DNA of 64,000 nt from an uncultured Methanosarcinales archaeon (lineage in GTDB: Archaea > Nanobdellota > Nanobdellia > Woesearchaeales > GW2011-AR4), in contig CAZPFO010000003.1 of assembly GCA_964585935.1 (NCBI GenBank), forward strand, positions 2,544-66,543, in the 5' to 3' direction. Each line of letters opens with the position of its first letter. Within the stretch, counting starts at the first letter, position 1. The translations under genes and the position numbers were made by a program. A model generated the notes under the pieces. The model saw nothing but the letters and a program-made list of their open reading frames with translations. It did not search any database and had not been told where the DNA came from. Positions 14,924 to 36,051 of this stretch are shown one piece after another.

Positions 14924-14938
14924 TTTATCCCTCCCCGA

Positions 14939-15313
14939 TTATAGTCCTTCCATAAGTAAAATTATCCCAATAATTAAAGAGCCACCAATTCTTAAAATCC
15001 ACCTATTTTGTTGGACTAACTCTTCAAACCACTTAATTTTGCTGATTCTACCATCAGTAATATATGATAAAAAACTCCATGTAGCTAACGTAAAAAAAAC
15101 TATTGAAATAATTCCTATCCATATTTTAACATTTTCCTTAATTCCAAAATAAGATATTAAAGTAACTGAATTCAAAAAGAATGTTAACCTGCTTGTATAT
15201 TTTGTTTCTATGAAAAGCCCGACCAGTAAAAGCGCGACTGCCGGCAGTAAAGCAATATATTCCAACCTAAACCCAGGTATAATCATAAAAAAAGATTGAA
15301 TTAGGTTAGTCAT
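14939..15313 (-). CDS. small four-helix membrane protein embedded in the R-M operon
   Basis: 124 aa with about 4 hydrophobic segments (YIALLPAVALLLVGLFI, LTFFLNSVTLISYFGI, IWIGIISIVFFTLATWSFL, IGGSLIIGIILLM). Its ATG overlaps the hsdS stop by 4 nt. Confidence 0.55.
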   Translation of the reverse strand: MTNLIQSFFMIIPGFRLEYIALLPAVALLLVGLFIETKYTSRLTFFLNSVTLISYFGIKENVKIWIGIISIVFFTLATWSFLSYITDGRISKIKWFEELVQQNRWILRIGGSLIIGIILLMEGL

Positions 15314-16449: not shown

Positions 16450-16450
16450 T

Positions 16451-17185
16451 TTATTTTATATTCTCTTCTGCAAAATCAATCATTTCTTTTAATATTTTTA
16501 AAACTTCTTTTGGATTTTCATTTTTATAATCTTCAGAATAAAGATATCTTGCTGAATCCCTTAAGTTTGACAATTTAGATAAAGTTTCACTAAACTCAAT
16601 CTTAACATTCCCCAAATTTGCCCAATTCTGAAATTTATTCAGTCTATCTTTGTGATTTCTTCCAGTAAGAATCTTATTATCTGCCAACATCAATAAAACA
16701 CTTTTAGCAGATAGTTCAGCAGAAGCAAAAGCATTTTCAAAAAATGGTCTTAATCTACACTTATCTGAGTTTTCTTTTGCACTTTCATAAAATTCTTTAG
16801 AAGCTTTAATATGTTCTTTGATTATTTCTTTGTTATATCTTGCATCAAATGAGATTATCCAATTATTTTTAAATACCAATAAAGTAATATGGGAACAATT
16901 AACATCCTCGCCGGTTAATTTTACATTTTTAATTTTATCAATATCCTTCTCGTAAACTACTTCCCCTTTGTTTATTTGTTTATTGGATTTACATTCAACA
17001 ATTGCTTTAACTTGTTCATTTAATCTTATTCTATTTTTTCTATTTAATGAAAAGATTATTTGGACTTTAGAAATAACAAAATCATCTTTAATTTTTCCAA
17101 ATTTTCTTCTTCTCTCTACCTCAGGTTTCACCCAAATATCCATTACTTGCTGAAAAATTTTTTGTCCAATATTTTCTTCGTTCAT
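16451..17185 (-). CDS. two-domain protein with C-terminal HEPN-like helical domain
   Basis: The C-terminal about 130 aa show the HEPN-like pattern AELSAKSVLLMLA..GRNHKDRLNKF..LSNLRDSARY. The N-terminal about 110 aa are unassigned. A clear R-x4-6-H motif was not seen. Confidence 0.45.
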   Translation of the reverse strand: MNEENIGQKIFQQVMDIWVKPEVERRRKFGKIKDDFVISKVQIIFSLNRKNRIRLNEQVKAIVECKSNKQINKGEVVYEKDIDKIKNVKLTGEDVNCSHITLLVFKNNWIISFDARYNKEIIKEHIKASKEFYESAKENSDKCRLRPFFENAFASAELSAKSVLLMLADNKILTGRNHKDRLNKFQNWANLGNVKIEFSETLSKLSNLRDSARYLYSEDYKNENPKEVLKILKEMIDFAEENIK

Positions 17186-17556
17186 AATCCATTCCCCAAC
17201 ATTTTACTTGGTATTGAAACAGAATCTTTTTTCTTTTTCTTAATAGCTGACGTTCTTTCCTCCAGAGATTTATCTAAAACCTTCTTCAGATCTTCTAAAT
17301 ATTCAGCAGATAAATCTTTTAAAATATTGATTTCCTCATTAGAATCAAGAATAACATCCCAATCAAAAGTATCTTTTCCTTTGTCATAAGAAATAATGTT
17401 TTTTCCAGCAATATTCTGTGGAATAGGAACTTTAATCTCATGTAAAAGTAGATCTCTAATTAAAGATGCAGGAGTAGCGCCTTTTTTTTCACAGTAAGAT
17501 TTAACTAACATTGCTTCATGCACAGTCAGCTTTGTTGAAACGGATTTGAAGTTCAT
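17182..17556 (-). CDS. ribbon-helix-helix-like small protein
   Basis: N-terminal strand-helix-helix pattern STKLTV-HEAMLVKSYCEKKG-TPASLIRDLLLHEI. Its stop overlaps the HEPN-like gene start by 4 nt. Confidence 0.45.
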   Translation of the reverse strand: MNFKSVSTKLTVHEAMLVKSYCEKKGATPASLIRDLLLHEIKVPIPQNIAGKNIISYDKGKDTFDWDVILDSNEEINILKDLSAEYLEDLKKVLDKSLEERTSAIKKKKKDSVSIPSKMLGNGL

Positions 17557-17578
17557 GGTGATTGGAAATTGAAGCTCA

Positions 17579-17586
17579 TTTATATA
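17579..17586 (-). promoter_or_regulatory. TATA box for the RHH/HEPN/hsdS/hsdM transcription unit
   Basis: The minus strand reads TATATAAA, centred about 26 nt upstream of the ATG at 17556. Confidence 0.45.
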
Positions 17587-17600
17587 CTTTTCTGTTTTTC

Positions 17601-17622
17601 ATGGTCAACCTAAGTTGACCAT
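17601..17622. promoter_or_regulatory. perfect palindrome ATGGTCAAC-N4-GTTGACCAT (candidate operator)
   Basis: 9-bp arms with a 4-nt spacer, 15-35 nt upstream of the TATA of the RHH-like gene. Confidence 0.45.
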
Positions 17623-17745
17623 ATTATCAAGCCATTATTAAAAGAAAAGTTTATATACTTACAATCTTATTACCTTATTAACGAGTAAGTCATGCTGAAC
17701 GGATGACGGCTCAGGATTGAGCTCAGGACAAATAAGCATGGTTCG

Positions 17746-18402
17746 TTATTTTTTCTTGAATAAATCATTTTTCTCGATAATAACTTTATCCTTAAATAAG
17801 TTTATGTAAGATTCACAATCTCCCTTTTGCTTGGCAGTATTATACTTATAACCAAAGGCTCCGCATATAAAATCAGTCACTTGCAGTCCTGGATGCCCCG
17901 CTGAACTAACATGCACTACGTTAATCTTAGGCACTTTATTGAAAAGATACACGAATTCTGTCTCGATATATGCTCTAAAATTTTCCATTTGGTTTTTAGA
18001 CATGCATTTATCAAGGTAAATAGTTAAATTATTGGAGATATCAATTTCTTTAAGAGGTTTTTCAAGCAGAATCTTCAAAAGATAATTGTAAAGAATTGGC
18101 AAATTATCCCTTAATTCATTATTTGTATACTCTTTTTTTATTATCAATGAAAATACTTGCAGATCTAGATCTTTTAATCTTGATAGGTATCTTTCTCTGA
18201 TTAAAGGTGAAGAATTTGTAAATTTCAATTCAAATCCCTTTTTATATTTCTTTTTCAAGGTTCTTTGCCTGACTTTCTTTGGGATTCTTAAAAATGCTAC
18301 ATTATCTTTTTCATTATCAATCTTAGCGCAGGTTATTATAAAATAGTTGCTTCCCTTTTCAAAACCCAAATCACCACTCTCATCGATATATAAATAGCCC
18401 AT
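17746..18402 (-). CDS. DUF3800-like protein
   Basis: The N-terminus MGYLYIDESGDLG is the hallmark DUF3800 start motif. The gene starts 1 nt after the hsdR stop. Confidence 0.6.
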   Translation of the reverse strand: MGYLYIDESGDLGFEKGSNYFIITCAKIDNEKDNVAFLRIPKKVRQRTLKKKYKKGFELKFTNSSPLIRERYLSRLKDLDLQVFSLIIKKEYTNNELRDNLPILYNYLLKILLEKPLKEIDISNNLTIYLDKCMSKNQMENFRAYIETEFVYLFNKVPKINVVHVSSAGHPGLQVTDFICGAFGYKYNTAKQKGDCESYINLFKDKVIIEKNDLFKKK

Positions 18403-18403
18403 T

Positions 18404-21124
18404 TTATCTCATTCTTATTTCATTGCACTTCTCTACTATAACCTTTAATTCAGACTCTTCGAATTTATCTAAAGGCCTTTCATCAGAAAGCGGAGATTTT
18501 GCAAAATCAGCAAGTTCAATTTTCTTATGATTTGAGAAAAACTTCTTAAGAAGAAGTAAGAATTCAATTTGCTCATAATTGTATTTTGGATCCATTATGT
18601 GTTTATGAAACTCTCTTTCAATAATCTCTTGAGGGTCATATTCATGTGTTAATCCAATTATTTGATATATAAACACTAAAAAGTCCTTATTTAGCTGGTT
18701 TTGTATATTCTCAATAGAGTAAGCAGGATTTAAAGCTGTTAGTTGTTTTTCAAGGTGTACAATCTCTTTTGAGGTTATGCTTCCTCCGCTCTTTATTTTT
18801 TGTAATATAGGATTATTTTTAACAAATTCCTCAAATTTTGAATCATGTTGTATTTCATAATCTACCTCTTCTTCCCTTATAATCATATCAGGAGCATCAA
18901 CCCTTACCATCTTTTTAGGCAATGGTTCATAGTATTTCATCAAAGGAGCAATCTCTTTAATTAGAAATTCAACTTTCTCGAATGTAAGGTCATCCCAATA
19001 ACTTTCCTGTAACACTTTTAATATGTCCTTTTTCTTATTCTGGATTTCAGAAAGAGAATCTTTCAAAAGAATATTATTAAGCATCTCCCACACATAATTC
19101 TTAATTTTTTCAATTTTATGCTGCTCAGATTTTATTATATGTTTGAATAATTTTTCAGTTTGCAATATGAATGAAGTTATATTAGCATTATCTCCTTGAT
19201 TTAAAATCATTAATGGAGCGATATCTGAAAGAAGTCCTCTGACATATTTCTCCAGATCAAATGTTTTTCCAATTTTGGTTAATAAAGGTAGTTTATCCCT
19301 AATTACAAATGAATCTTTATCAAGACTTTTTATATCCCAAATAAGTTTATCCACTATAATCTTTTTCTGTTCATTACTTAGTTTTTCTTTTAATAGATTA
19401 ACACGATTTTCAAAAATAGATACCATAACATTCTTGCCAGAATCTTTATCTTTTGATTGTTTAATTTTATGAACCTTAATGTTTGAATGGCCCCCAATTA
19501 CAAAATCTAATACTAAAAAATCATTTTTCTCTCTATGCTGCAGCCATTCAGGATGCTTACAAGCATCCAAATTTCTAGTTCCCCTTCCCATCATTTGCCA
19601 AAATCTAATTGAAGAAAAAACAGGCCTTGCAAAAACTAGATTACAAACTTCAGGAATATCAACCCCCGTATCTAACATTCCAACACTTAAAGCAATCCTT
19701 GGCTCTGAATTTAGCTTAAATCTCCTTATCTCATCTTGAGCCCTATATTCATCAGAAGTTATAACTTGTACTTCCTTGCTTAGTTTAGGAAACAATTCTC
19801 CAAATATTTTTTTTATTGCTTTAGCGTGGTTTTTTCCAACACAGAAAAATATGGTTTTTGCTGGGAGATTTTCATCAGACCTGTAACATCTATTAACAAA
19901 TTCGGCGACAATAATCTCATTAATTCTTCTGTCAACAAACACTTTCTCATACTTAGAACCTTCAATTTCAAAACTTTCAGGATCAATTTCCTGCTTTCTT
20001 AACTGATCTTTTAGATCTTCACTCAATTTTTGACCCTTAATGCCTAACTCCAACCGTTCTGTTTCAATTATTTTACCCTTATACGGAACCAAGATCCCAT
20101 CATTAACTGCATCATCATAACTGTACTCAATAGTGGGTTCCCCCCTTTTACATCCAAATAAATCATAAGTGTTTTTGCTCTCATGTTGTCTAGGTGTTGC
20201 AGTTAATCCAACCTTTATTGCATCAAAATACATATTTACATAATTATTTTTATCATAAATTGATCTATGGGCTTCATCAAATATAATCAAGTCAAAAAAA
20301 CCCGGGCTGAATTTCTCAAACATAGTTTTTCCTTTCTTCCCCATCAATGTTTGAATTGTTGAAGTATAAAGCCTTGCAGTAGTTGAAAAACCCTTTATGT
20401 GTAATTCAACTGTAGGCTCTCCCCTAAAAAATTCCTTAAAACCATCTGAACTAGCCTGATTTGCTAAAATAATCCTATCAGCGATAAATAAAACATTCCT
20501 AACATAATTTGCTTTTTTTAATATATCAATCAAAGCCATGGCTAATCGTGTTTTTCCAGTTCCAGTAGCCATTTGAACTAATGCCTTCCCATAACCTTTT
20601 GAGAAATGCTCTGCAAGCTGTTTTACAAACAGGATATTTTTAGGCCTCTTATCTCCCATTATTCTTGGGTTGACTGGAATTTTTGAAGGATCTTTCTGAT
20701 TATTGTAAAGCTCCTTTCTTCTTTTCAAATCTTCTTGCGAAAAAACTCCACTAACTATTCTTTCAATTTCATCTTGATCTTTGTAAATCCATTTTATACC
20801 ATTTGTTAAAAACATAGGTAATCTATAATTGAGCTGTTTTTCAATATCTTTAACATAAGTTCTAGATTGAATAGTACCTGTATCCGGCTCTTTAGAAGGT
20901 TTTTTAACTTCAATTATCGCTAAAGGGGTAAAATCTTCTGCCAACAAAAGATAATCTATAAATCTATCTACTCCTTTTTCTATACTCGGGCCTTTTAAGA
21001 CATAATCTTTATTTTTAAAATTTGACTTAACAGAATTAACTTCTTCTTTTATATATTCTTTTAACCAACCAGCTTTCTTTAGTTGTTTATCAATCAGGTT
21101 TTTCCTTGTTGTTTGTTCATCCAT
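18404..21124 (-). CDS. hsdR: type I restriction enzyme R subunit (helicase-nuclease)
   Basis: N-terminal HsdR-type nuclease region, Walker A MATGTGKT, DEAH box IIFDEAHRS, motif VI QMMGRGTR, and a long C-terminal helical tail. Confidence 0.9.
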   Translation of the reverse strand: MDEQTTRKNLIDKQLKKAGWLKEYIKEEVNSVKSNFKNKDYVLKGPSIEKGVDRFIDYLLLAEDFTPLAIIEVKKPSKEPDTGTIQSRTYVKDIEKQLNYRLPMFLTNGIKWIYKDQDEIERIVSGVFSQEDLKRRKELYNNQKDPSKIPVNPRIMGDKRPKNILFVKQLAEHFSKGYGKALVQMATGTGKTRLAMALIDILKKANYVRNVLFIADRIILANQASSDGFKEFFRGEPTVELHIKGFSTTARLYTSTIQTLMGKKGKTMFEKFSPGFFDLIIFDEAHRSIYDKNNYVNMYFDAIKVGLTATPRQHESKNTYDLFGCKRGEPTIEYSYDDAVNDGILVPYKGKIIETERLELGIKGQKLSEDLKDQLRKQEIDPESFEIEGSKYEKVFVDRRINEIIVAEFVNRCYRSDENLPAKTIFFCVGKNHAKAIKKIFGELFPKLSKEVQVITSDEYRAQDEIRRFKLNSEPRIALSVGMLDTGVDIPEVCNLVFARPVFSSIRFWQMMGRGTRNLDACKHPEWLQHREKNDFLVLDFVIGGHSNIKVHKIKQSKDKDSGKNVMVSIFENRVNLLKEKLSNEQKKIIVDKLIWDIKSLDKDSFVIRDKLPLLTKIGKTFDLEKYVRGLLSDIAPLMILNQGDNANITSFILQTEKLFKHIIKSEQHKIEKIKNYVWEMLNNILLKDSLSEIQNKKKDILKVLQESYWDDLTFEKVEFLIKEIAPLMKYYEPLPKKMVRVDAPDMIIREEEVDYEIQHDSKFEEFVKNNPILQKIKSGGSITSKEIVHLEKQLTALNPAYSIENIQNQLNKDFLVFIYQIIGLTHEYDPQEIIEREFHKHIMDPKYNYEQIEFLLLLKKFFSNHKKIELADFAKSPLSDERPLDKFEESELKVIVEKCNEIRMR

Positions 21125-23507: not shown

Positions 23508-24335
23508 ATGAACATTTCTGTTTCATTGCTTTCAGCTTACCAATACTGCCCAAGAAAGATATTCTTAGAGCGTGTCTTGAAACTTTACGAGCCTCCAAAA
23601 GAAGCATTACTTCTGGGAACAATAAGGCATGAAATATATGAATTAATCAACAACAAGGAAGAAGAAATTGTCACAAATATCCAAGAAAAAACATCTAATG
23701 AAGAATTAGAGACCACATACAAAAACATATATTCAAAAATTCTAAGGAACGTTATTATCAAGCACAAGGAAAACCTGAAACAGTTTGAAGTAAACATAAA
23801 CGAACTTTTCAAAAGAATTCAACCATTGATACAAAACGAAGCAAAAAACAGGTCAAATAACATATCAATCTTCATAAATAAACACAATATCTTCGGCAAA
23901 GAACTATGGGAAAAGCTAACCCCTAAGATACAGTCAGAAATAAAGATAAGATCAGCAACCCTAAACCTGACAGGAATAATTGACCAGCTGGAAATCTACG
24001 AAGATAGCTTTACCCCAATCGAATTAAAGACAGGAAAAGCCCCAAAAGAAGGAGCATGGCCCGGCCATAAGATACAGATTGCAGCATATGCTATGTTATT
24101 AGAAGAAAAGCACAACACCAAAATAAAAGAAGGCTTCATACACTATCTTGATATAAATGAACGTAGACATATCCCGATAAACATCTTCCTAAAAGAAGAG
24201 ATAATTCAATTAATAGAAAAAGTAAAAACCTTGCTGCAAAGCAAAACCATACCAGACTTCTGCAATAATAAAAACAAATGCAATGTATGCGGCCTAAGAA
24301 CCAGCTGTTACGATAAAAAACTAAAAGTTCCTTAA
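23508..24335 (+). CDS. cas4: Cas4-family PD-(D/E)XK exonuclease with 4-Cys cluster (stand-alone)
   Basis: N-terminal YQYCPRKIFLE, core IIDQLE..IELKTGK, and C-terminal CNVCGLRTSC (C-x2-C-x5-C). No CRISPR array or other cas genes in the window. Confidence 0.7.
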   Translation: MNISVSLLSAYQYCPRKIFLERVLKLYEPPKEALLLGTIRHEIYELINNKEEEIVTNIQEKTSNEELETTYKNIYSKILRNVIIKHKENLKQFEVNINELFKRIQPLIQNEAKNRSNNISIFINKHNIFGKELWEKLTPKIQSEIKIRSATLNLTGIIDQLEIYEDSFTPIELKTGKAPKEGAWPGHKIQIAAYAMLLEEKHNTKIKEGFIHYLDINERRHIPINIFLKEEIIQLIEKVKTLLQSKTIPDFCNNKNKCNVCGLRTSCYDKKLKVP

Positions 24336-26173: not shown

Positions 26174-26312
26174 CACAAACACGATAACAATCAGTTGTGA
26201 ACGTGCATCTGCAGTCGTTTTTTAATTTTAATTTTCAAAACAAATAATATAATTAAATAAAATTAACTTAAAAACACACAAATAATTGTTAACGTATAAC
26301 ATAAACATTGAT
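26174..26312 (+). repeat. intergenic module copy 1 (hairpin + conserved box + T6, AT spacer, promoter-like box)
   Basis: Matches 36130..36265. Shared boxes are GTTGTGARCGYGCATCTGCAGYCGTTTTTTA and CACAAATAATTGT(T)AACGTRTAACATAAACATTGAT. Confidence 0.8.
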
Positions 26313-26316
26313 TAAA

Positions 26317-27273
26317 ATGTCAAACGCTATCTGGACTGAAAAATACAGGCCAAAAGAGTTCTCTGAAATAAAAGGCCAGAAGGAGATAGTCAAAAGAGTG
26401 AAGGCCTTTACAGAACAAAAAAACATGCCTCATTTATTGTTTGCAGGCCCTCCTGGTGTTGGAAAAACAACCTTGGCTTTGGTGATAGCAAAGAATTTTT
26501 TTAAGGAAGAGTGGCATCAGAATTTTCTGGAACTGAACGCATCTGACGAGCGAGGCATAGACATAATAAGGAACAAGGTAAAGGATTTCGCAAGAACAAG
26601 GGCAATAGGCGATGTTCCATTTAAGATAATTTATCTTGATGAATGCGACGCATTGACAAGAGAAGCCCAGCAGGCCTTGAGAAGGACAATGGAAAATTAC
26701 ACCAAAACCTGCAGATTTATCCTTTCAGCAAATTATTCTTCAAAAATCATAGACCCGATACAAAGCAGGTGCGCTGTTTTCAGGTTCAAGCTGCTGGAAA
26801 AAAAAGACATAAACTCACTCGTAGAAACAATAGCAAAAGAAGAAAACCTCAAGATAGATGAAAAAGCAGCAGATGCGCTTTATACAGTAAGCGAAGGGGA
26901 CTGTAGGAGAGTTGAGAACATACTGCAGAGCTCTGCAGCAATCTCCTCCACAATAACGGAAGACACTATTTACTCTATGGCATCTGTCGCAAAGCCAAAG
27001 GAAATCAAGGAAGTACTCGAATTAGCCATAAAAAACAGATTCATAGACGCAAGGAAGAAGCTTCTTGACGTGATGCTCAGTTATGGCCTCTCAGGTCATG
27101 ATGTTATAAAGCAGATACAGTCAGAAATCCTTGACCTTGATATGGATAACAGGAAAAAAATGGCTTTGATTGAAAAATGCGGAGAAACAGAGTTTAGGAT
27201 GACTGAAGGAAGTGATGAATACCTCCAATTAGAATCCTTACTAGCTTCTGTAACATTAACAGGTTCTGAATAA
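26317..27273 (+). CDS. rfcS: replication factor C small subunit
   Basis: WTEKYRP, Walker A GPPGVGKTT, LDECDALT, and SRC (QSRCAVFRF). The ORF-track TTG at 26308 is replaced by the ATG at 26317 (MSNAIW). Confidence 0.9.
   Translation: MSNAIWTEKYRPKEFSEIKGQKEIVKRVKAFTEQKNMPHLLFAGPPGVGKTTLALVIAKNFFKEEWHQNFLELNASDERGIDIIRNKVKDFARTRAIGDVPFKIIYLDECDALTREAQQALRRTMENYTKTCRFILSANYSSKIIDPIQSRCAVFRFKLLEKKDINSLVETIAKEENLKIDEKAADALYTVSEGDCRRVENILQSSAAISSTITEDTIYSMASVAKPKEIKEVLELAIKNRFIDARKKLLDVMLSYGLSGHDVIKQIQSEILDLDMDNRKKMALIEKCGETEFRMTEGSDEYLQLESLLASVTLTGSE
27205..27263 (+). repeat. rfcS 3'-end segment, copy 1 (in-gene)
   Basis: Encodes GSDEYLQLESLLASVTLTG. A diverged second copy lies about 180 nt downstream. 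Confidence 0.8.
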
Positions 27274-27385: not shown

Positions 27386-27457
27386 GACGGCTCTGATGAA
27401 TATCTCCAACTTGAAGCACTATTGGCAACAGTAACATTAACAGGAGAAAAACAATAA
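27386..27457 (+). repeat. displaced second copy of the rfcS 3' end
   Basis: Encodes DGSDEYLQLEALLATVTLTGEKQ* with many synonymous differences from copy 1 (for example AGT versus TCT for Ser). It is preceded by in-frame stops. Confidence 0.75.
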
Positions 27458-27476
27458 AAAGAAAAAAATAATAAGG

Positions 27477-28448
27477 TCAGTCTAACAAGTGCTTGACTAA
27501 AATTTTCGTATCCTTGTCATCTTCATAATTGTAATCCAAAGTAATCCTTAACTCTTTCTCAAAATCAGACCTGTCTGTGCTTAAATCCAGCGTGCACGAA
27601 ATAGACCTCTTCCCGTTAACAAGTGTGACAAAATCACTATTGCCCTGCAGACCACTGCAACTCACACTGCCCAGTCCAGGATCAACAGTAACCATCACCT
27701 TATTCAGGTTCCTTCTTCTTTCACTCGAGTCTGAAGGGCAGTCAGCAGCTTGCTGGCCACCACCATACTTAAAAATATCTCCATTCCCTCTATGCACTAC
27801 ATCAAAACTAAACCCTATTTTATCCCTGCCTACAACAGTCTCTTTAAAATTACTCAACTGCACAGGAGCTCCGGAACTATGTACTTGTTTGTTCTCACGC
27901 GGATCGCAAAGAGCACCATCCCTGACATTAATCAGGTCCCTTAAAACACAATACTGCGCCATCCCGGTTGTCTGGTACAAATAACATACATTTGCCCTGA
28001 AAGTGAATTCTTTTCTGTTACCCACTAACTTGCCGACATAATTCAGTTCATCATCCCCCTCAGGAAACTCAACAAAAACAGGCACGCCTTCAATAATATT
28101 GCCTTCTGTATCTCTGCTTCTCCCTATTAAATCATCTTCAGGCATCTGGTTTTGCAGCTGCTCTAGGTAAGATCCAAAATCCTCTGCTCTTATACCAAAT
28201 AAGCTTACCTTTATATCCTGCCTGCCAATATCAAACTCGCCATCATTCCTTAAGCTAACAAGAACATCAAAATCAAAAGTTCCGCTGTCAGTAACCTCTT
28301 CAGGAGGGCTTCCTTCTATAAAGTCTATAAAAACTCCTGTTGTGCCGCCTAAAAAAGGAGCAACACTACCTTGGGTTTCTCCGCCCTGACACCCTGCAAT
28401 AAAGAATAAACTGGTTACAAACATGACAAACAAAACATTTTTATTCAT
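27477..28448 (-). CDS. secreted lipobox protein, surface-module paralogue 1
   Basis: Signal peptide ending FIAGC. Shares the blocks SPPEEV.., VCYLYQT..C, SSGAPVQLSNF and the C-terminal LDYNYEDD with paralogues 2 and 3. GGAGG RBS. Confidence 0.7.
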   Translation of the reverse strand: MNKNVLFVMFVTSLFFIAGCQGGETQGSVAPFLGGTTGVFIDFIEGSPPEEVTDSGTFDFDVLVSLRNDGEFDIGRQDIKVSLFGIRAEDFGSYLEQLQNQMPEDDLIGRSRDTEGNIIEGVPVFVEFPEGDDELNYVGKLVGNRKEFTFRANVCYLYQTTGMAQYCVLRDLINVRDGALCDPRENKQVHSSGAPVQLSNFKETVVGRDKIGFSFDVVHRGNGDIFKYGGGQQAADCPSDSSERRRNLNKVMVTVDPGLGSVSCSGLQGNSDFVTLVNGKRSISCTLDLSTDRSDFEKELRITLDYNYEDDKDTKILVKHLLD

Positions 28449-28568
28449 TTTCGAACCTCCTTTTGAGTAATTATTTTATTTGGTTTATTTAAAGTTTACT
28501 AAAATCCAGGGGATTTTTGGACTTTTCATCTCAAATCCCTGATTTTTGCTCTTCAAACCCCTTAAAAA

Positions 28569-29681
28569 CTATGACTTAGGCACCTTCACAATCTCCACAC
28601 TTTTCGAGATAGTATCCCTATATCCATAAGCAAGCTCAATATACAATGGTGTGGAGTAGGCAGAGCTTACATCATCTTTATAGTCCTTTAAATTACAAAC
28701 AATAAATCCCTTATCATTTATCAGTCTTGCATAGCTTCTATGTTTTTGCTCTTTTCCATAACCCTGCACAGACACAGGAGCATCACAGTCTAACTTGCTT
28801 CCTCCAGTATCCCACCTGTAAACATCATCCCCCATCTGGACCCTGACCACTTTAACCAGATCAATATCGCTTTTTTTCAATACCCCTCCATGGGCAATAT
28901 CCTCTTTCTTATCCTTCCCAGAGCATCTTTTCAAAACATCAGTGGCAATAACATCCCCCTTGCCAACATTCTTGAAATGGATCTTGAACTGCAGGCTATT
29001 GCTCAAAGCCTGCACCTCAACCTGAGTTATAGCAACAGGCGCTCCCTGGCTGCTTAAGCTTATATCTTTTATTTCACAAACCTTCCTCTCATCCACAGTT
29101 GAGAAAGGCCTTGGATCAACACAAACATTCGGGCTGGCCTTAGTCTTGTAATCATAACAGGCAGTAACAAGGAAATTAGGAGTATATTTATCAGCCTCCA
29201 TATTTTTCAAATCAGCAGTCCCTACAAACTCCAACAGATCATAGCCTCCTCCGGGATTGTTGATGTTTTTCCCTTCCAGAATATCTGCTTTGTCTTCAAG
29301 AAGAAAATAAGGGTACTTGTTGATTTTACCGGCCTCCGCACTTTCAAATTCCCATTTATTTATGATATTTGGGTCAAAACCGCTTATAAGAATCACATCA
29401 TCCTCCTTGTCTGTTTTCCACAGCTCCATCCTGCCTTCTTCTACAGGATCAGGATAAGCCCCTTTATTCCACACTTCAATGCTGACAATTATTTTCAAAG
29501 TATCTTCGTCAGCATACATCTTGCTCGGAGGAGCCCCGGACAAAAATTTCACAATCAATCCATCTGTGCCTTTCCTGAACTCAGAGCCTTTCTCACCAGA
29601 AGATGTTGGAGGACTGCACCCAACAATAAAGATTACTATAACAAAAAAGCAAAGAACAAAATTTTTATTGATTTTTACCAT
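28569..29681 (-). CDS. secreted lipobox protein, surface-module paralogue 2
   Basis: ATG at 29681 (MVKINKNF..FIVGC); the ORF-track GTG at 29690 was rejected. Blocks GAPPSKM, ACYDYKTKASPNVCVDP, QGAPVAITQVEV and LAYGYRDT. Confidence 0.7.
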   Translation of the reverse strand: MVKINKNFVLCFFVIVIFIVGCSPPTSSGEKGSEFRKGTDGLIVKFLSGAPPSKMYADEDTLKIIVSIEVWNKGAYPDPVEEGRMELWKTDKEDDVILISGFDPNIINKWEFESAEAGKINKYPYFLLEDKADILEGKNINNPGGGYDLLEFVGTADLKNMEADKYTPNFLVTACYDYKTKASPNVCVDPRPFSTVDERKVCEIKDISLSSQGAPVAITQVEVQALSNSLQFKIHFKNVGKGDVIATDVLKRCSGKDKKEDIAHGGVLKKSDIDLVKVVRVQMGDDVYRWDTGGSKLDCDAPVSVQGYGKEQKHRSYARLINDKGFIVCNLKDYKDDVSSAYSTPLYIELAYGYRDTISKSVEIVKVPKS

Positions 29682-29721
29682 TATTAACACTTTTTATTTA
29701 ATTTATTTATTAATTTTTATT

Positions 29722-30717
29722 TTATGAAGACTCTATATTGAATCCTTTTGATATTGTCGAAGTATACCCATAATCCAGTACTATGCTCAAAGGAGTAAGA
29801 TAAGCTCTGTCAACAGTAATACCTTCCAATGTCTCACACCTGAAAACTCCTTCTTTTCCGCTGAGAACAATCTCTTGGTCACCCCCTTGTTTACAATCTA
29901 AAACAACATTATTAGATAATTTCGTCTCATCTTTATTAATCATGATAACATTAAAATATTTATTCTCTTCATTTGGTTTCCCTCCTCTAGCACCACAGGC
30001 ACTCATATAACTATCCTTCTTTACAACTTCTCCAATTCCTTTATTCTGGACATGCACTATGAATTCAGGCTTTACTAAGTTATCTTCTGCTGGCGCAATC
30101 TTCACCTCAATTTTTGTTATTGCAACAGGAGCACCTTGTCCAGTTAGAAACAATAAATCCTTTACCTCACATGCTTTCTCTACTCCGGCTAAATTATAAA
30201 AATCAGGATCAATGCATACAGTTGTGCTTAGCTTTGTCTGGTAAGGGTAACATGCAGTTGCAAAAACAGAGGATTCATGTATATTACTCAAAGAGCTTAA
30301 CTCCCTCGCTCCTAAGTAAGAATTAACAACAATCTCTTCCCCAACAGGATTGGATAAGGATCTTCCCCTAACACTAAAACTGGAGCTTTTCTCCTGCCCA
30401 TTGTACTCCACCCCATCACTTTCATCTATACTCTTAAAATCAACATAGCCTGATTCAGGGGTTATGACAAAAATGCCCTTCTCTTTCTCAAATCCGACAT
30501 CATAAGCTCCTTTATTCTCAACCCTGACAATCACATTAAATGGGGTATCCCCAAAAACCCTTTTCGGAGGAGCATTATTTACAAAGCTCATCTCAATACC
30601 TTTAGTGCCCTTATAAAGGCTGCTTGCTGCTTTTGTATCACCACCAGGAACAAGACCAATACAGCCCGAAATAATAAAAACCAATGCAAAACCTAAAATT
30701 AAATGTTTTTTTTGCAT
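29722..30717 (-). CDS. secreted lipobox protein, surface-module paralogue 3
   Basis: Signal peptide ending IISGC. Blocks NAPPKRV, ACYPYQTKLSTTVCIDP, QGAPVAITKIEV and LDYGYTST. Confidence 0.7.
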   Translation of the reverse strand: MQKKHLILGFALVFIISGCIGLVPGGDTKAASSLYKGTKGIEMSFVNNAPPKRVFGDTPFNVIVRVENKGAYDVGFEKEKGIFVITPESGYVDFKSIDESDGVEYNGQEKSSSFSVRGRSLSNPVGEEIVVNSYLGARELSSLSNIHESSVFATACYPYQTKLSTTVCIDPDFYNLAGVEKACEVKDLLFLTGQGAPVAITKIEVKIAPAEDNLVKPEFIVHVQNKGIGEVVKKDSYMSACGARGGKPNEENKYFNVIMINKDETKLSNNVVLDCKQGGDQEIVLSGKEGVFRCETLEGITVDRAYLTPLSIVLDYGYTSTISKGFNIESS

Positions 30718-30773
30718 TTTTATTTTTAAATCGACACCCCTTTTAAATTTGTTTTGATTCTTTCCATATAACT

Positions 30774-33662
30774 TTAACTGCTAATCTTAGATTCCGCACT
30801 TCTAACACTCTCTACAAAATTAACATCAGCACCTGTTCCACAACCCCAGCCATTATAACCCCTTAATGCAGCATTCCATTCTCTATACGACGCATAATCT
30901 TTTATGTATCTTGGGTCATGACACACATTATTATCAAGATCTTTAAAATAATCTTCACTAAATCCAGACTTATAGGATTCATATTTATCTTTCAATATAT
31001 TCAACCCGCATTTAATATTTTTTTCCAGGTTATACATATCACTAATACCCATCCCGCAAACTCTGCTAATATAGTCAGCATCATTTATATTCACTTGCAT
31101 CACCCCTATGCTGCTTTTATCGCCACTGGTAATGAGATATTCCTTAGAACAGGTATCTGCATCAGTAGTTTTGCAATTATCCCCTGTACCAGAACCTTCC
31201 TCACAACAATGCCTGAATCTACTTTCAACATAAACCAAAGCCAAAGCTAAATCCTCATCAACTCCCTCTTGTTTTGCAATATCACTTACCTTTCCGGCAA
31301 TTGTTTTATAGATTAACCACCTTGTCTTATCAACTCTGATTTCATCAAGTTCAGTTATTTTACTACCCTTCACAGTTCCAGGCTCAGACTGTACCTGCAC
31401 ATCAATATCTTTACTCACAGCATAATCATACCTTGCCTTTGCCCTGAAATATCTAAGTGTAAAGGGGGTTTTTCTCAGGATTTTAGGCTCCACCTTAAGC
31501 CTGCAGCTGAATGACCTATACCTATCAATATCTTTAAACTTATCAAAAACCAACCAGTCTTCAGCATCAACATCGATAGTATAACCATTATAATCTCCTT
31601 CTCCTTCCTCCCCTTCAAACAATATTTCGCAATCTTTCTCACAGCTTTCAAGCACACTGCTACATTCTTTATCACAATCTTTCGGCACGTTCGGTTTTTT
31701 ATTAGCTTTACAAACACTCACACACGGATCAAACGCCAAATTCTTGCACGACTTTCCCTTACAATCATCCTTTGTGTAAACCTTAAACTCCACAGTACAG
31801 TCATCCTCTAGATTTTCTATTAGGGCTCCAGGCGGCGTTAAAATCACGAGCTCTGTTAAGCTCCTTATAACCCCCTCCCAACCATCTCTGTTTTCCAAAG
31901 TAATTCCCAATCTTGGTCGGGAAACAACATCATCACCAACTTCAATTATTGGGGATGTAGTCTCCATGCCAATTATAACAGGCCCGTCTGTATAAATAGC
32001 AATTGGCTCTTTATCCTTTATCCCGTATTCTCTGAAAGGATCAAGCCCTTCTTTTGTCATATCTCTTTTTTTATCAATATCCATAAAATAAGACTTCAGA
32101 TAAGCTAATGTCTCAAAACTGAATTCAGCATCAACGGTTATTGTGTTTATCCCAAGATCAAAGAACCTAGCATCTTCCCTTATCTCAGTAAGGTCTATCA
32201 GCATCTTCTTAGGCTTAAAGCTACATTCAAAATCCCTTGTTTCAGAACTATATACTGTGAAAGTTTTATTAGGTATTACAGTTGTGGAATCAGTATCAAA
32301 AATAAATCCTTCTTTATAACATTTCATGTCTACATTAACCCCTTCTTCAAGGCTCCTTGCCTTTACACTTCCAAAAACAATAACCTCTTCTCCTTCATAA
32401 TACCTCGGCTGCGAAGTCTGCAGCTTTTCTATAAAAACACCTAACGGCCCATCCTTGTTTTTCTCAACCTCACCTTTGTAATAGCCCCCCGTTGCATGTA
32501 CAAGCTGCGCATCCAAATCAGCCTGAAAGCCTTCCCACGCCTTTTTGAAAGTATCCAGAACATTATTCAGTCCAACAGTGATAAAGTTAGATCCTTCCTG
32601 CCTCTGCTCATCAGTTAAAGTAGCGCCCATATTCTTCAATCCATCCAACCCACCAACAAAATAAAACACATTCATCATTATAACAATAAAAATAAGCATA
32701 CTCATCCCAAAAGTCCTTTTCTGCCGGTGAGAATATATTAACGCAAAATAAAACCATATTGGGATAATTAACCTGTTAGACACAAACGGATTATCAACAA
32801 ATTCTGCTAACAACCCAAACCCAAAAAAATCAAACAGCAAGAGGGCTAGAAAAGTATAATTCGCTCCTGTTGTCCCTCCAACCTTCTCGCCAGAATACCT
32901 GATATAGAGAAAATAAAAACCTAAAACAAACGCAAGATGAATAAGTTGCGTTCCCATACCACCTAAAAAGATAATCAAAGACAATGCTTCAGCAACCAAG
33001 AACCAGGAGATGAATTCCTTTGTATTTGGCCTATACAAAACCCAATACGCTATCAGCAACGTTAAAACAATACTATTAAAAAACCACCCAACATAACTCT
33101 CCATATTGGTAAAATAAAAATTATCCATGAACTTCCCGATATTTATCCCATTAAAGCCAAGAAACTTATCAATAAAATACAGCATAGCAGCCATAAGAAT
33201 AAACATCCTGCCGGATTCTTCATCACCCTCGAGCAACTTCCCCCTCATAATCTCTTTGGCTCTTGCTCCAACATCTCCAATAGGTTTTTTTATGCCTCTC
33301 CCAATCCTCACAATACCCTTTGGATGTTTCCCTATCCACTTCTTAGCTCTCTTTGTCCTATCTTCCAAATGATCAGCATACCTTCCAAAAATTGGTTTTT
33401 TTGCTTCCTCTGCTCTTCTATTCGCTTCCTCTTTCTCATCTCTCAATTCGTCTTCATATCTTTTTAACTCATCAGCAATTAGGGTTTCATCAGTCCAGCC
33501 TAGACCGGGACCTGGGGTTGTAGGGGCTCTTAAATATTTATCATGGGCCTTAATTCTGTCTTCAATCCATTTTTCATCTATACTGCTAAGAACACCACTC
33601 TTATCCTTAAACATCCTTTTAAGAGAATTAGCAAACTTCGAAGCACCTTCTTTTTTTGTCAT
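30774..33662 (-). CDS. 962-aa polytopic membrane protein with paralogue-like ectodomain, Cys-rich linker and C-terminal lytic transglycosylase (SLT) domain
   Basis: About 150 aa charged N-terminus and about 7 TM helices (aa 150-350). The ectodomain has GPVIIGMET and ARYDYAVS blocks, analogous to the lipoproteins. The last about 165 aa contain VYVESRF..SSIGVMQVN..NIKCGLNILKDKY..RGYNGWG. Confidence 0.7.
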   Translation of the reverse strand: MTKKEGASKFANSLKRMFKDKSGVLSSIDEKWIEDRIKAHDKYLRAPTTPGPGLGWTDETLIADELKRYEDELRDEKEEANRRAEEAKKPIFGRYADHLEDRTKRAKKWIGKHPKGIVRIGRGIKKPIGDVGARAKEIMRGKLLEGDEESGRMFILMAAMLYFIDKFLGFNGINIGKFMDNFYFTNMESYVGWFFNSIVLTLLIAYWVLYRPNTKEFISWFLVAEALSLIIFLGGMGTQLIHLAFVLGFYFLYIRYSGEKVGGTTGANYTFLALLLFDFFGFGLLAEFVDNPFVSNRLIIPIWFYFALIYSHRQKRTFGMSMLIFIVIMMNVFYFVGGLDGLKNMGATLTDEQRQEGSNFITVGLNNVLDTFKKAWEGFQADLDAQLVHATGGYYKGEVEKNKDGPLGVFIEKLQTSQPRYYEGEEVIVFGSVKARSLEEGVNVDMKCYKEGFIFDTDSTTVIPNKTFTVYSSETRDFECSFKPKKMLIDLTEIREDARFFDLGINTITVDAEFSFETLAYLKSYFMDIDKKRDMTKEGLDPFREYGIKDKEPIAIYTDGPVIIGMETTSPIIEVGDDVVSRPRLGITLENRDGWEGVIRSLTELVILTPPGALIENLEDDCTVEFKVYTKDDCKGKSCKNLAFDPCVSVCKANKKPNVPKDCDKECSSVLESCEKDCEILFEGEEGEGDYNGYTIDVDAEDWLVFDKFKDIDRYRSFSCRLKVEPKILRKTPFTLRYFRAKARYDYAVSKDIDVQVQSEPGTVKGSKITELDEIRVDKTRWLIYKTIAGKVSDIAKQEGVDEDLALALVYVESRFRHCCEEGSGTGDNCKTTDADTCSKEYLITSGDKSSIGVMQVNINDADYISRVCGMGISDMYNLEKNIKCGLNILKDKYESYKSGFSEDYFKDLDNNVCHDPRYIKDYASYREWNAALRGYNGWGCGTGADVNFVESVRSAESKISS

Positions 33663-33728
33663 TTTTATATTATATGGATTAGAATAAAACTCTTATTAGA
33701 ACGCTTCTTTATAAAATTTATTAAAAAA

Positions 33729-34925
33729 CTAATCTCTTTCTTCCATCTCAACTCTAAGCTCTCTGATTTCAAGCGATGTCCTTGGCCTTATCTCGATATA
33801 ATTATTGCCTTCTTCAACCCAATTCCTTATGCTTCTGCTGTAGTCTTTTTCTTCCTGGTCTATGTTTGTAAGATGCCCATTGATATTAAGGTCAGCTCTC
33901 TTATTGTCATTGTCATCAACAAACTCTATCTTCACCCTTACATCCAGGTCATCGTCTAATATCTCATCCCACTTGCTTTCATTGATTTCAAAATAATAAA
34001 TCCTCTTTTTTGTTTCCTCAGCCTCAAACTCAAGCCTGATCTGCTCAATGCTGTAGCTTCCCCTGTTTGTCTGAAAAACTATGAAGTTTTCGCCGGCATT
34101 CAACACACCTAAAGGAACTGTCTGCTTGTAAGGGTCATCACAGACAGGAACAGCTGAAAATATATCCTGGTTATTAACAGAAACATCCAGGATTCCAACA
34201 TCACTCACTCCCGCACAATAAGGTATGAATTTCAAAGTAGCCTTCTCCAGGTTATTGTATTCTGTCCGCGTTAATGTAAAAACATTCTGGCTTTTCTGCC
34301 TCGTAACATCAGTAATATCTCCTATGATCCTGATATCATCCAGATTATACTCGTTCGTTGACCAAAACCTCCATCCAACAGAAGAAACACTGAACTCCAA
34401 TTCATTTTCCCTCTCTAACCTGCTTTTCTTCAGCCTTACAGGCTCAACAACTTCATCTTCAATATCTTTTTCATAAATTGTTTCCCCATTGAGCTTTATA
34501 GTTAAAACACCCTCATGCTTTTCAGCAGTAAAAGATAGCAAAACCTTATCAACAGTATCCAGATTATCAATAGAAAACCCTACAGTCTTATCATTTTTGT
34601 CAAAAACACCATTCCTGACACTAAAAGGATTTATCCTTTCTATCTCCTTGGCTTCTGTTGACTTGAACAGATAAACATTAGGAAGGTTTTTTTCATCAAC
34701 ACCCTCTACTTTGTCTAATCTTTTCGGGAACTCAAGAAGCAGCACATTCTCATCCTCTTCAGCTTCCCTTTCCTCAGTAGTTTTATTATAAAAAAACTTC
34801 TCCCTGTCAGCAGTTGGCAGATAAATCACATATAATATTATCAAACCTAGAACAATAGCTACAAGAACAGCAGCATTCATGCCGCTTTGCCCTTTCCTCA
34901 TAAAATCACCTTTTTCACTATACAT
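33729..34925 (-). CDS. surface protein with archaeal class III (type IV pilin-like) signal peptide
   Basis: MYSEKGDFMRKGQ/SGMNAAVLVAIVLGLIILYVIYL resembles a prepilin/archaellin signal (basic-G-Q followed by a hydrophobic helix). Start chosen at the ATG at 34925, about 26 nt from a TATA-like box. The ORF-track start at 34988 would overlap the pelota ATG. Confidence 0.55.
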   Translation of the reverse strand: MYSEKGDFMRKGQSGMNAAVLVAIVLGLIILYVIYLPTADREKFFYNKTTEEREAEEDENVLLLEFPKRLDKVEGVDEKNLPNVYLFKSTEAKEIERINPFSVRNGVFDKNDKTVGFSIDNLDTVDKVLLSFTAEKHEGVLTIKLNGETIYEKDIEDEVVEPVRLKKSRLERENELEFSVSSVGWRFWSTNEYNLDDIRIIGDITDVTRQKSQNVFTLTRTEYNNLEKATLKFIPYCAGVSDVGILDVSVNNQDIFSAVPVCDDPYKQTVPLGVLNAGENFIVFQTNRGSYSIEQIRLEFEAEETKKRIYYFEINESKWDEILDDDLDVRVKIEFVDDNDNKRADLNINGHLTNIDQEEKDYSRSIRNWVEEGNNYIEIRPRTSLEIRELRVEMEERD

Positions 34926-34986: not shown

Positions 34987-36051
34987 ATGAAACAAATCTA
35001 CTTTAACCTTAAAAAAGGCGAAATAAAGCTAAAAGCAGAAAACCTGGATGATTTATGGTACTTAAGCAATATAATAGAGCCAAAAGACATAATCAAAGGC
35101 AAAACAGTAAGAAAAATAAAACTAGGCGGAGAAGAACAAAGAAAACAAAAAATAACAAAAAAACCAGTCTTCTTAAAAATCCAGGCAGAAAAAATAGAAT
35201 TCAGCAAGACCTCTGACATCTTAAGAGTTTCAGGAATAATAACACAGGGCCCGGAAGATATAAAGCTCGGAGCTCACCACACTTTTAACATAGAAGAAAA
35301 CTCAATAATAACAATAATAAAAGAAAAATGGTTAATCTTCCAGCTGGACAAATTAAAAGAGGCATGTTCTGAAAAAATCTCCAAAATCCTGATCGTTGTC
35401 CATGACCGCGAAGAAGCTTATTTCGCCTTAATGAAAAAATATGGCTATGAAATCTTAACACACCTAAGAGGAACTGTCCAGAAAAAGGCAGATACAGAGA
35501 AAGTTAGGGGAAATTTCTATTCAGAAATCCTCGCCCAGGTTGATAATTACAATGAAAAATACGCCTTTTCTCAAATAATAATAGCAAGCCCCTCTTTCTG
35601 GAAAGAAGATTTGATGAAAGAGCTAAAAGACGAAGAATTAAAGAAAAAAATTATCTTAGCAACATGCTCATCAGTAGGAAGAAACGGCATAAATGAGATA
35701 CTAAAAAGGCCTGAAACAATACAGGCATTAAAACAGGAAAGAGTATCTAATGAGATTAGCTCAGTGGAAAAATTATTAGACGAGATATCCAAAAATAACC
35801 TTGCTGCATACGGCCTAAAAGAAACAGAAAACGCAGCCTTTGCAGGCGCGGTTAAAGAGCTGCTGATAACAGACACATTAATAATGAAAAGCAGAGACCA
35901 AAACAACTACGAAAAGATAGACACAATCCTGAAAACAGTGGAGCAGACAAAAGGGACTATCCTGATTATAAGCTCAGAGCACGAAGGCGGCAAAAAACTG
36001 GACGGTTTAGGGGGCATAGGCGCAGTTTTAAGATATAAAATGAACTATTAA
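34987..36051 (+). CDS. pelA: Pelota/Dom34 mRNA surveillance factor
   Basis: The N-terminus GEIKLKAENLDDLWYLSNIIEPKD and the eRF1-like central and C-terminal domains are typical of archaeal Pelota. Confidence 0.85.
   Translation: MKQIYFNLKKGEIKLKAENLDDLWYLSNIIEPKDIIKGKTVRKIKLGGEEQRKQKITKKPVFLKIQAEKIEFSKTSDILRVSGIITQGPEDIKLGAHHTFNIEENSIITIIKEKWLIFQLDKLKEACSEKISKILIVVHDREEAYFALMKKYGYEILTHLRGTVQKKADTEKVRGNFYSEILAQVDNYNEKYAFSQIIIASPSFWKEDLMKELKDEELKKKIILATCSSVGRNGINEILKRPETIQALKQERVSNEISSVEKLLDEISKNNLAAYGLKETENAAFAGAVKELLITDTLIMKSRDQNNYEKIDTILKTVEQTKGTILIISSEHEGGKKLDGLGGIGAVLRYKMNY

Follow-up and report, generated by a model that had tools for sequence, protein, structure and literature searches.

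The locus described here is a block of five genes, designated A to E, on the minus strand of a 64,000-nucleotide stretch of archaeal DNA (contig CAZPFO010000003.1, positions 2,544 to 66,543), the whole of which is referred to below as the window and has a GC content of 35.8%. The five open reading frames (ORFs) lie between a Pelota gene (34987..36051, +) and a gene for an RFC small subunit (26308..27273, +), and all of those proposed in an initial annotation, made from the sequence alone, are present. The genes and their features are listed below.

33729..34925 (-): gene A, a surface protein of 390-398 aa whose N-terminus is of the prepilin type (class III-like), defined from the ORF and 55 homologues
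34815..34901 (-): in A, signal motif RKG/QS (the slash marks the predicted cleavage site) followed by a hydrophobic helix of ~22 residues, from sequence and motif conservation
33732..34568 (-): in A, three tandem beta-sandwich repeats of ~95 residues each (residues 120-398), from self-comparison with hhalign
30774..33662 (-): gene B, a polytopic membrane protein of 962 aa with an ectodomain and an SLT domain
33213..33662 (-): in B, Lys/Glu-rich N-terminal region (residues 1-150) that varies in length and is presumed to be cytoplasmic, from the alignment
32637..33212 (-): in B, membrane domain with ~7 transmembrane (TM) helices (residues ~151-342), from hydropathy and AlphaFold2 (AF2) helices
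31383..32510 (-): in B, ectodomain of two beta-sandwich domains (residues ~385-760), from the alignment, AF2 strands and Foldseek
31593..31799 (-): in B, Cys-rich helical insertion with 8 Cys (residues ~622-690), from the alignment and the model
30852..31277 (-): in B, C-terminal lytic transglycosylase domain, SLT/GH23 (residues 796-937), from PF01464, motifs and Foldseek
29722..30717 (-): gene C, lipoprotein paralogue at operon position 1, 331 aa, signal peptide ending in IISGC
28569..29681 (-): gene D, lipoprotein paralogue at operon position 2, 370 aa, signal peptide ending in FIVGC
27477..28448 (-): gene E, lipoprotein paralogue at operon position 3, 323 aa, signal peptide ending in FIAGC
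27443..27476 (-): T-rich tract directly downstream of E and convergent with the RFC gene, as read from the sequence; likely the end of the A-E transcription unit, where it would serve in termination

Only B matches a curated Pfam family (PF01464, SLT), none of the five proteins has a match in NCBIfam, and the three core families represented here (A, the core of B, and C/D/E) are without a sequence relative in Pfam, NCBIfam or the PDB, where searches with B, its SLT tail and profiles of the B core and of A returned nothing meaningful.

The conservation of the locus was assessed by scanning one genome per species, 185,579 species in all, with a sequence pattern derived from a 29-sequence alignment. 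A relative was encoded in 152 genomes, and in the 80 loci that were kept, all ORFs were compared with profiles of A, B, C/D/E, Pelota, RFC and the PRC barrel. The complete string, consisting of Pelota (-), then A, B and three lipoprotein genes (+), then RFC (-), was recovered in 44 of the 80 loci, the string of A, B and three lipoprotein genes in 47, and a consistent partial order in 76, the incomplete loci being mostly those on short contigs or with the match close to a contig end. Two long contigs (L001 and L003), with homologues that are 37-38% identical, carry the same five-gene order between Pelota and RFC/PRC-barrel genes, and the flanks of the operon comprise Pelota, acetyl-CoA synthetase, TrmB, RFC, PRC-barrel and Cas4-like genes. 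No VirB4/VirD4-type ATPases, such as would indicate an apparatus resembling type IV secretion, were found in this locus or its flanks. For each of C, D and E, the best match in other genomes has the operon position of the query in 51 of 51 comparisons, which indicates that the triplication of the lipoprotein gene predates the species radiation and that the order has been frozen since.

The loci are labelled Woesearchaeota, Nanoarchaeota or Nanoarchaeia, with the exception of one Aenigmatarchaeota, two labelled simply 'archaeon' and one set of third-party 'Methanosarcinales' metagenome-assembled genomes. A search with C yielded 83 matches, the closest informative ones being unnamed or hypothetical proteins of Woesearchaeota and Aenigmarchaeota, while an exhaustive HMMER search of 1.84 billion representatives placed the C/D/E family in 3052 clusters at 50% identity (E <=1e-3). 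No relatives were found in the viral contigs searched, which argues against a viral or mobile origin. On the sequence evidence, the five genes are best described as a vertically inherited core operon characteristic of Woesearchaeota/Nanoarchaeota; the proposal of a dedicated, co-ordered envelope module is upheld by near-universal synteny in the lineage, and the absence of synteny in relatives, which would have refuted it, is decisively contradicted.

About 25 of the 80 loci come from third-party annotation records titled 'uncultured Methanosarcinales archaeon' (L007, L010-L012, L014, L016, L017, L019-L021 and others), and in these the operon and its neighbourhood are the same as in loci labelled Woesearchaeota or Nanoarchaeota. 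These labels are probably wrong or placeholders.

The clearest indication of function comes from protein B. Its first 150 residues, which contain 36 Lys and Arg and 29 Asp and Glu, are weakly conserved and variable in length, and they are followed by a membrane domain for which hydropathy and the AF2 model agree on the approximately seven TM helices noted earlier (residues 150-342). This domain has no relative in Pfam or the PDB, and its assignment as a pilus platform protein, an O-antigen ligase-like protein or another known enzyme was rejected, no family being recurrent among its members (O-antigen_lig matched 1 of 65, E 0.0036). Almost all nearly invariant columns of an 80-sequence alignment lie in the ectodomain, which is thus the most conserved part of the family; in the AF2 model of B, built from 19 sequences (pLDDT 73.7, pTM 0.44), the ectodomain resembles complement MG and integrin calf domains and Gram-positive pilins according to Foldseek. 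The Cys-rich segment (~622-690), which had been regarded as a linker preceding the SLT domain, is instead an insertion within the second beta domain, with conserved strands on its C-terminal side. It is confined to the window's clade and missing in distant homologues, namely a metagenomic one (P0102) and the B proteins of L001 and L003.

The presence of a lytic transglycosylase domain at the C-terminus of B is confirmed by PF01464, which matches residues 796-937 above its curated threshold (36.0 bits against a cut-off of 21.3, E 5.6e-9; 40.9 bits and 1.7e-10 with the tail alone). The catalytic Glu of the E-S motif, GLMQ and AYNxG are the defining motifs of family 1 lytic transglycosylases, and the window protein has VESRF, GVMQVN and GYNGWG at the corresponding places, with the ES, GxMQ and YNG motifs kept in 19 of the 21 homologue tails that bear GxMQ. 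The model of this domain, itself of moderate confidence, has a lysozyme-like alpha-helical fold, its Foldseek matches including goose lysozyme (1gbs, probability 1.00, TMt 0.49), MltE (6ghy, probability 0.99) and Slt (5o1j, probability 1.00). The domain is therefore predicted to be a lytic transglycosylase with intact catalytic motifs, and it would be expected to be enzymatically active.

The tail is not the same in all homologues. Nearly complete B proteins were surveyed in the genomes of other species (65 proteins), together with the B protein of the window itself. Approximately 13 of the 65 (~20%) stop within 10 residues of the ectodomain and have no C-terminal module, and the 53 tails of at least 60 aa contain SLT (24), GH73 glucosaminidase (4), NlpC/P60 (1), lysozyme-like (1), SLT_2 (1) and fn3 (3) domains. 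The metagenomic homologue P0102, which is not one of these, carries a peptidase M23. A peptidoglycan hydrolase is thus carried by B in about half of the species, and the wall-cutting domain, judging from these comparisons, is an exchangeable tip on a conserved scaffold. This exchange of unrelated hydrolase families at a single fusion point is the strongest functional clue in the data: since unrelated enzyme families that share one substrate are fused at one position of the scaffold, peptidoglycan is indicated as the target, and the bacterial cell wall is the likely object of the predicted hydrolases.

Proteins C, D and E are paralogous lipoproteins, as had been supposed, with BLASTP similarities over their full lengths that are far beyond chance (C-D 8e-30, C-E 7e-15, D-E 3e-13). 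All of the motifs quoted for them in the initial annotation, and for B, were found: in the order C, D, E these are NAPPK, GAPPS and GSPPE in the first block; ACYPYQTK..VCIDP, ACYDYKTK..VCVDP and VCYLYQT..C in the second; GQGAPVAIT, SQGAPVAIT and SSGAPVQLS in the third; and LDYGY, LAYGY and LDYNY in the fourth. Each of the three proteins begins with a positively charged n-region and a hydrophobic core and has [LVI][ASTVI][GAS]C within ~25 residues, and these lipobox signal peptides are well supported by the family as a whole, the lipobox Cys being invariant in a 74-sequence alignment and kept in 49-50 of 51 orthologues at each operon position, with G, A or S at -1 preceded by hydrophobic residues. 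Six further Cys are conserved (156, 168, 183, 241, 275 and 294 in C), as expected for an extracellular disulfide-bonded protein. Lipid anchoring is plausible, since the lipidation enzyme AliA occurs in DPANN archaea (PMC12462473).

The AF2 model of C, obtained from the 74-sequence alignment, is all-beta and of high quality (pLDDT 91.9, pTM 0.85) and consists of two strand-rich halves, each closed by a strand of ~24 residues. Foldseek matched it in the PDB to integrin alpha thigh and calf domains, complement MG domains, C-terminal adhesin domains of AgI/II, Gram-positive pilins and CfaB, the best E being 6e-6 with TM-scores of only ~0.2, and among viral models to proteins of the DUF11, clumping-factor and TRAP-beta types; across this comparison with immunoglobulin-like (Ig-like) sandwiches the probabilities were high and the TM-scores no greater than 0.26, which assigns the fold to this class without demonstrating membership of the CARDB/DUF11 proteins. 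Pfam gave no match for the family, CARDB (PF07705) being found in only 3 of 74 members with E 0.043 or worse, and the B core had no match to PF07705 or PF01345. The ectodomain therefore belongs to no curated family in Pfam or NCBIfam, and the claim of a novel ectodomain holds for the family but not for the fold, which in the models is of an ordinary class, tandem Ig/CARDB-like beta-sandwiches, albeit without a close structural match. The enlarged lipoprotein homologues were considered as possible fusions of paralogues, which would have provided a Rosetta-stone argument for a complex, but this was rejected, as they contain a single module with extra C-terminal domains or internal insertions. 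Those C-terminal extensions that have a Pfam match are fn3, LRR and Big_5, which identifies the lipoprotein C-terminus as the place where binding modules are added.

Protein E had been suspected of a different history on account of a higher GC content. It does have the highest value among the five genes (41.6%), but this is barely above that of D (40.7%), with C at 37.4% and both A and B at 37.9%. In every genome E is the most divergent paralogue and it is always in the third position (51 of 51 loci), which points to an ancient, vertically inherited paralogue; horizontal acquisition was accordingly rejected, and a separate origin for this gene is not borne out.

It had also been proposed that the same fold is present four times, once in B and once in each lipoprotein, the motifs GPVIIGMET and ARYDYAVS of B, both of which it does contain, being cited as counterparts of the lipoprotein blocks. 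Comparison of the whole ectodomain with the lipoproteins by hhalign was not significant (probability 0.3% with shallow profiles, 1.5% and 4.5% with profiles of 153 and 84 sequences), nor was that of the first domains (P 0.054). The second domains do align, if weakly, with P values of 3.6e-4 (local) and 1.3e-4 (global, 121 columns) as compared with 0.045 or more in reversed-sequence controls, and a hidden Markov model of the second domain of B scored a median of +3.1 bits on 153 lipoproteins (44 above 5 bits, maximum 13.1, with matches in the correct region), whereas reversed decoys gave a median of -1.4 bits and two values above 5. The model of B has the same succession of elements as that of C, namely two halves rich in strands, with a strand of 24-26 residues at the end of each, and both match the same generic Ig-like structures. 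Part of the proposal thus stands: the second domain is likely to be common to B and the lipoproteins, while common descent of the first domain, unproven and suggested by parallel topology in the models only, is plausible.

The pilin-type (class III) signal attributed to the first-encoded protein, A, is well founded. The signal RKG/QSGMNAAVLVAIVLGLIILYVIYLP conforms to the class III cleavage motif, and the motif is conserved in ~50 homologues; the N-terminus of the 55 homologues reads M[KR][KR][AGS]Q(G/S)G.NAA(I/V)LVAII.GLIILYI.FLP..ER. Since homologues begin with M(K/R)K(A/G)Q..., the true start of A is probably Met9, at coordinate 34901. No pilin Pfam domain was detected in A. Self-comparison with hhalign aligned residues 120-304 with 221-398 (E 3e-9), and the repeats show a faint similarity to carbohydrate-binding jelly rolls, with 7 of 44 members matching PF14683, a family resembling carbohydrate-binding modules (CBM-like; best E 2e-4), and a match to the CBM region of a GH26 mannanase at E 0.29, so that A may bind glycans.

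Enlarged A homologues of 559-695 aa were observed in five loci (L045, L046, L069, L074 and L081), and three others (L057, L064 and L082) have 4-5 lipoprotein paralogues within the same operon frame, which indicates lineage-specific elaboration of the module.

Together, A to E may constitute a membrane-anchored surface scaffold that presents cell-wall hydrolases and adhesins and acts on the bacterial wall, a reading in which we place middling confidence. An extracellular location of the set is predicted from the lipobox Cys and the six further Cys of the lipoproteins, the prepilin-like N-terminus of A, and the TM helices of B with their Lys/Arg-rich N-terminus. B would be held in the membrane by its ~7 TM helices and project the two-domain beta-sandwich ectodomain, with C, D and E, as anciently diverged lipoproteins of two Ig/CARDB-like sandwiches each, standing beside it on the outer membrane face and probably forming, together with B, a stalk or base that is a hetero-oligomer. 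The C-termini would point away from the membrane and bear lineage-specific working ends, which on B would be a peptidoglycan hydrolase (in about half of the species; SLT in the window) and on some lipoproteins LRR, fn3 or Big_5 binding modules, while A may be a pilin-like accessory adhesin. Such a complex could tether the archaeon to a bacterium and locally open the sacculus, be it to attach, to reach the membrane or to scavenge fragments of the wall; the substrate is taken to be the bacterial wall because murein synthesis is not known from the lineage. SLT-domain proteins of Woese- and Pacearchaeota have previously been proposed to bind or degrade bacterial walls (PMC8204110; PMC9723730), and archaeal peptidoglycan hydrolases kill bacteria (PMC12352652). 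The scaffold model extends the former proposals, which concerned the SLT protein only, and is consistent with the latter finding.

Several observations weigh against this reading. The known hosts of DPANN archaea are archaea, and we know of no woesearchaeon for which a bacterial host has been demonstrated. The proportion of B proteins that lack a C-terminal module, together with further tails that have no recognisable hydrolase, implies a core function that is independent of peptidoglycan. No pilus ATPase, platform protein or prepilin peptidase was found among the part of the window's ORFs that was scanned, or within 10 kb of the operon in L001 and L003, although such genes could be encoded elsewhere in the genome, the model of B is only of moderate confidence, and the first domains of B and the lipoproteins, as described above, do not align significantly. 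Single-copy conservation among housekeeping genes, in addition, fits a basic envelope component equally well.

This last point leads to the main rival explanation, that A to E are a housekeeping envelope structure, either the surface layer (S-layer) itself, the anchor that holds it to the membrane or a scaffold occupying the space that separates the two, with hydrolases and adhesins as optional passengers. It would account for near-universal, fixed-order conservation, for the retention of the TM domain, the ectodomain and all three lipoproteins even where B has no C-terminal module, and for the very large size of the lipoprotein family, and archaeal S-layer proteins commonly consist of tandem Ig-like domains, the same class of fold as in the present models. 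For S-layer proteins, 30-60% sequence conservation within an order is nevertheless high, the frequent murein-hydrolase passenger is left unexplained, and S-layers are usually made of one or two proteins (PMC5744192) and not of four homologous membrane-anchored ones and a pilin-like one; we consider this explanation unlikely, though it deserves to be taken seriously. An antibacterial or feeding device, whose hydrolases would be directed at nearby bacteria, to kill or lyse them, or at free wall debris as a source of muropeptides and amino sugars, with no stable attachment to a host, seems quite improbable to us. It gains from the diversity of peptidoglycan hydrolase families on B, the CBM-like repeats of A, the killing of bacteria by archaeal peptidoglycan hydrolases (PMC12352652) and the 'vampiristic' proposal made for Woesearchaeota (PMC9723730), but attachment is favoured by the fact that an enzyme tethered to the membrane works only at contact distance, a bacteriolytic enzyme that is secreted has no need of a 7-TM anchor, of three lipoproteins or of a fixed operon, and variants of B without a hydrolase exist.

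By analogy with FlgJ and VirB1, which serve trans-envelope machines, the hydrolase might instead make space in, or turn over, a murein-like polymer of the archaeon itself. Bacterial machine-associated hydrolases do swap GH73, SLT, M23 and NlpC/P60 domains, the same families that occur on B, but no murein synthesis is known in the lineage, none is encoded in the window, which covers only part of the genome, and most archaeal peptidoglycan hydrolases are found in lineages without pseudomurein (PMC12352652), which makes this a very remote prospect. That the five genes are functionally unrelated neighbours whose shared surface location is coincidental is scarcely credible: the A-B, C-D and D-E gaps, of 40-120 nt, do hold AT-rich promoter-like tracts, but 76 of 80 species loci keep the same order although their proteins are only 28-40% identical, the genes for B and C usually adjoin or overlap one another (median gap 1 nt; <=30 nt in 42 of 48), and a domain is probably common to four of the five proteins.

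A bolder reading is that the operon encodes a new cross-domain contact machine defining Woesearchaeota/Nanoarchaeota, in which a hetero-oligomer of one 7-TM protein and three lipoproteins, all constructed from a shared two-sandwich module, would together with a pilin-like lectin dock on bacteria and breach peptidoglycan with an exchangeable tip. We regard this as doubtful, but were it true, much of a very large group of uncultured archaea would live on bacteria and not on archaea. Few uncultured archaea are as widespread as Woesearchaeota and their relatives, and their SLT proteins have been noted earlier as a hint of bacterial hosts. The operon is a testable candidate for how these archaea contact bacteria, and it provides conserved targets, e.g., for antibodies, tags or cryo-electron tomography landmarks at contact sites, for hydrolase assays on host wall chemotypes, and as a marker in genome surveys.

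Some further features of the neighbourhood were recorded. The spacer between D and E (28449..28568, -) contains an inverted repeat, CAGGGAUUU...AAAUCCCCUG, with a U-run behind it; a TATA-like tract and GGAGG come next, ahead of E, and from its sequence the spacer could hold an internal terminator and promoter; the repeat was rejected as a significant structure, its fold being no better than that of shuffled sequence (z = -1.57). The RFC ORF beside the operon has 846 aa in L005 and 955 aa in L016, as compared with ~320 aa elsewhere, which suggests an intein or other insertion. A protein of ~590 aa without a Pfam match adjoins M24 and M29 peptidase genes in the window (4954..6735, -), in L001 (18945..20720) and in L003 (17885..19651), and is another lineage-specific unknown in the same conserved neighbourhood. 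Two PD-(D/E)XK/Cas4-like nuclease genes are present in the window (23508..24335, + and 11313..11984, -), the former corresponding to the conserved Cas4/Dna2-like gene that in L001 adjoins the PRC-barrel gene; neither a CRISPR array nor further cas genes were seen near the two. The window also contains a type I restriction-modification system (13439..21124, -) comprising HsdM (13439..14923), HsdS (15310..16449) and HsdR (18404..21124), with a HEPN-domain gene (16451..17185) and a DUF3800 gene (17746..18402) between HsdS and HsdR. With a GC content of 27-31%, as compared with 36% for the window, this region is probably a defence island that was inserted.

With regard to known systems, no description of the operon or of its three core families was found in the literature searched. 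What is already known are the SLT-domain proteins of the lineage, the common fold class, and surface scaffolds carrying wall hydrolases or adhesins. What is new are three sizeable protein families without an entry in Pfam, NCBIfam or the PDB, the lipoprotein family alone amounting to ~3000 clusters at 50% identity, and the finding that the SLT protein belongs to an operon of five genes for orphan envelope proteins that is strictly conserved. The nearest precedent is that of the Woese- and Pacearchaeota SLT proteins (PMC8204110, 2021; Vigneron et al. 2022, PMC9723730), with which B shares the lineage, an SLT/GH23 domain on a large extracellular membrane-associated protein and the proposal of a bacterial wall as target. 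In those two studies the SLT proteins were treated alone, whereas in B the SLT domain is one of several interchangeable ends on a core of 7 TM helices and two sandwiches, and the gene for B belongs to an operon of fixed order, together with the genes for three paralogous lipoproteins and a pilin-like protein.

Bacterial trans-envelope machines likewise employ hydrolases, such as FlgJ in flagella, VirB1, PrgK and TcpG in type IV secretion, and the SpoIID/M/P engulfment machine. The resemblance lies in a membrane-associated scaffold with a local hydrolase, in the swapping of GH73, SLT, M23 and NlpC/P60 at one position and in a polytopic partner, but there is no sequence relationship, the A-E locus is without nearby secretion ATPases, rod, needle or pilus genes, and the producer of B is an archaeon not known to make murein, so that the wall cut would be that of another cell.

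A resembles archaeal type IV pilins and binding proteins with class III signals in having [KR][GAS]/Q followed by ~22 hydrophobic residues and a large extracellular domain (10.64898/2026.04.22.720090). It differs from archaeal type IV pilins in its length of ~390 aa, in its three beta-sandwich repeats with no pilin Pfam domain, and in a locus without adjacent ATPase, platform and peptidase genes. Tandem Ig-like adhesins and pilins (AgI/II, RrgB/SpaA-type, CfaB, CARDB/DUF11, integrin alpha calf/thigh and complement MG) are the best Foldseek matches of the B and C models, with E from 6e-6 to 1e-3 and probabilities of up to 1.0, and they too are all-beta, elongated and extracellular. The TM-scores are only 0.2-0.26 and no Pfam match accompanies them, and, in contrast with these adhesins and pilins, B, C, D and E are anchored by a lipobox or by 7 TM helices instead of through sortase or usher, and C/D/E carry a Cys pattern and motifs, GQGAPVAIT and LDYGY, that are specific to their own family.

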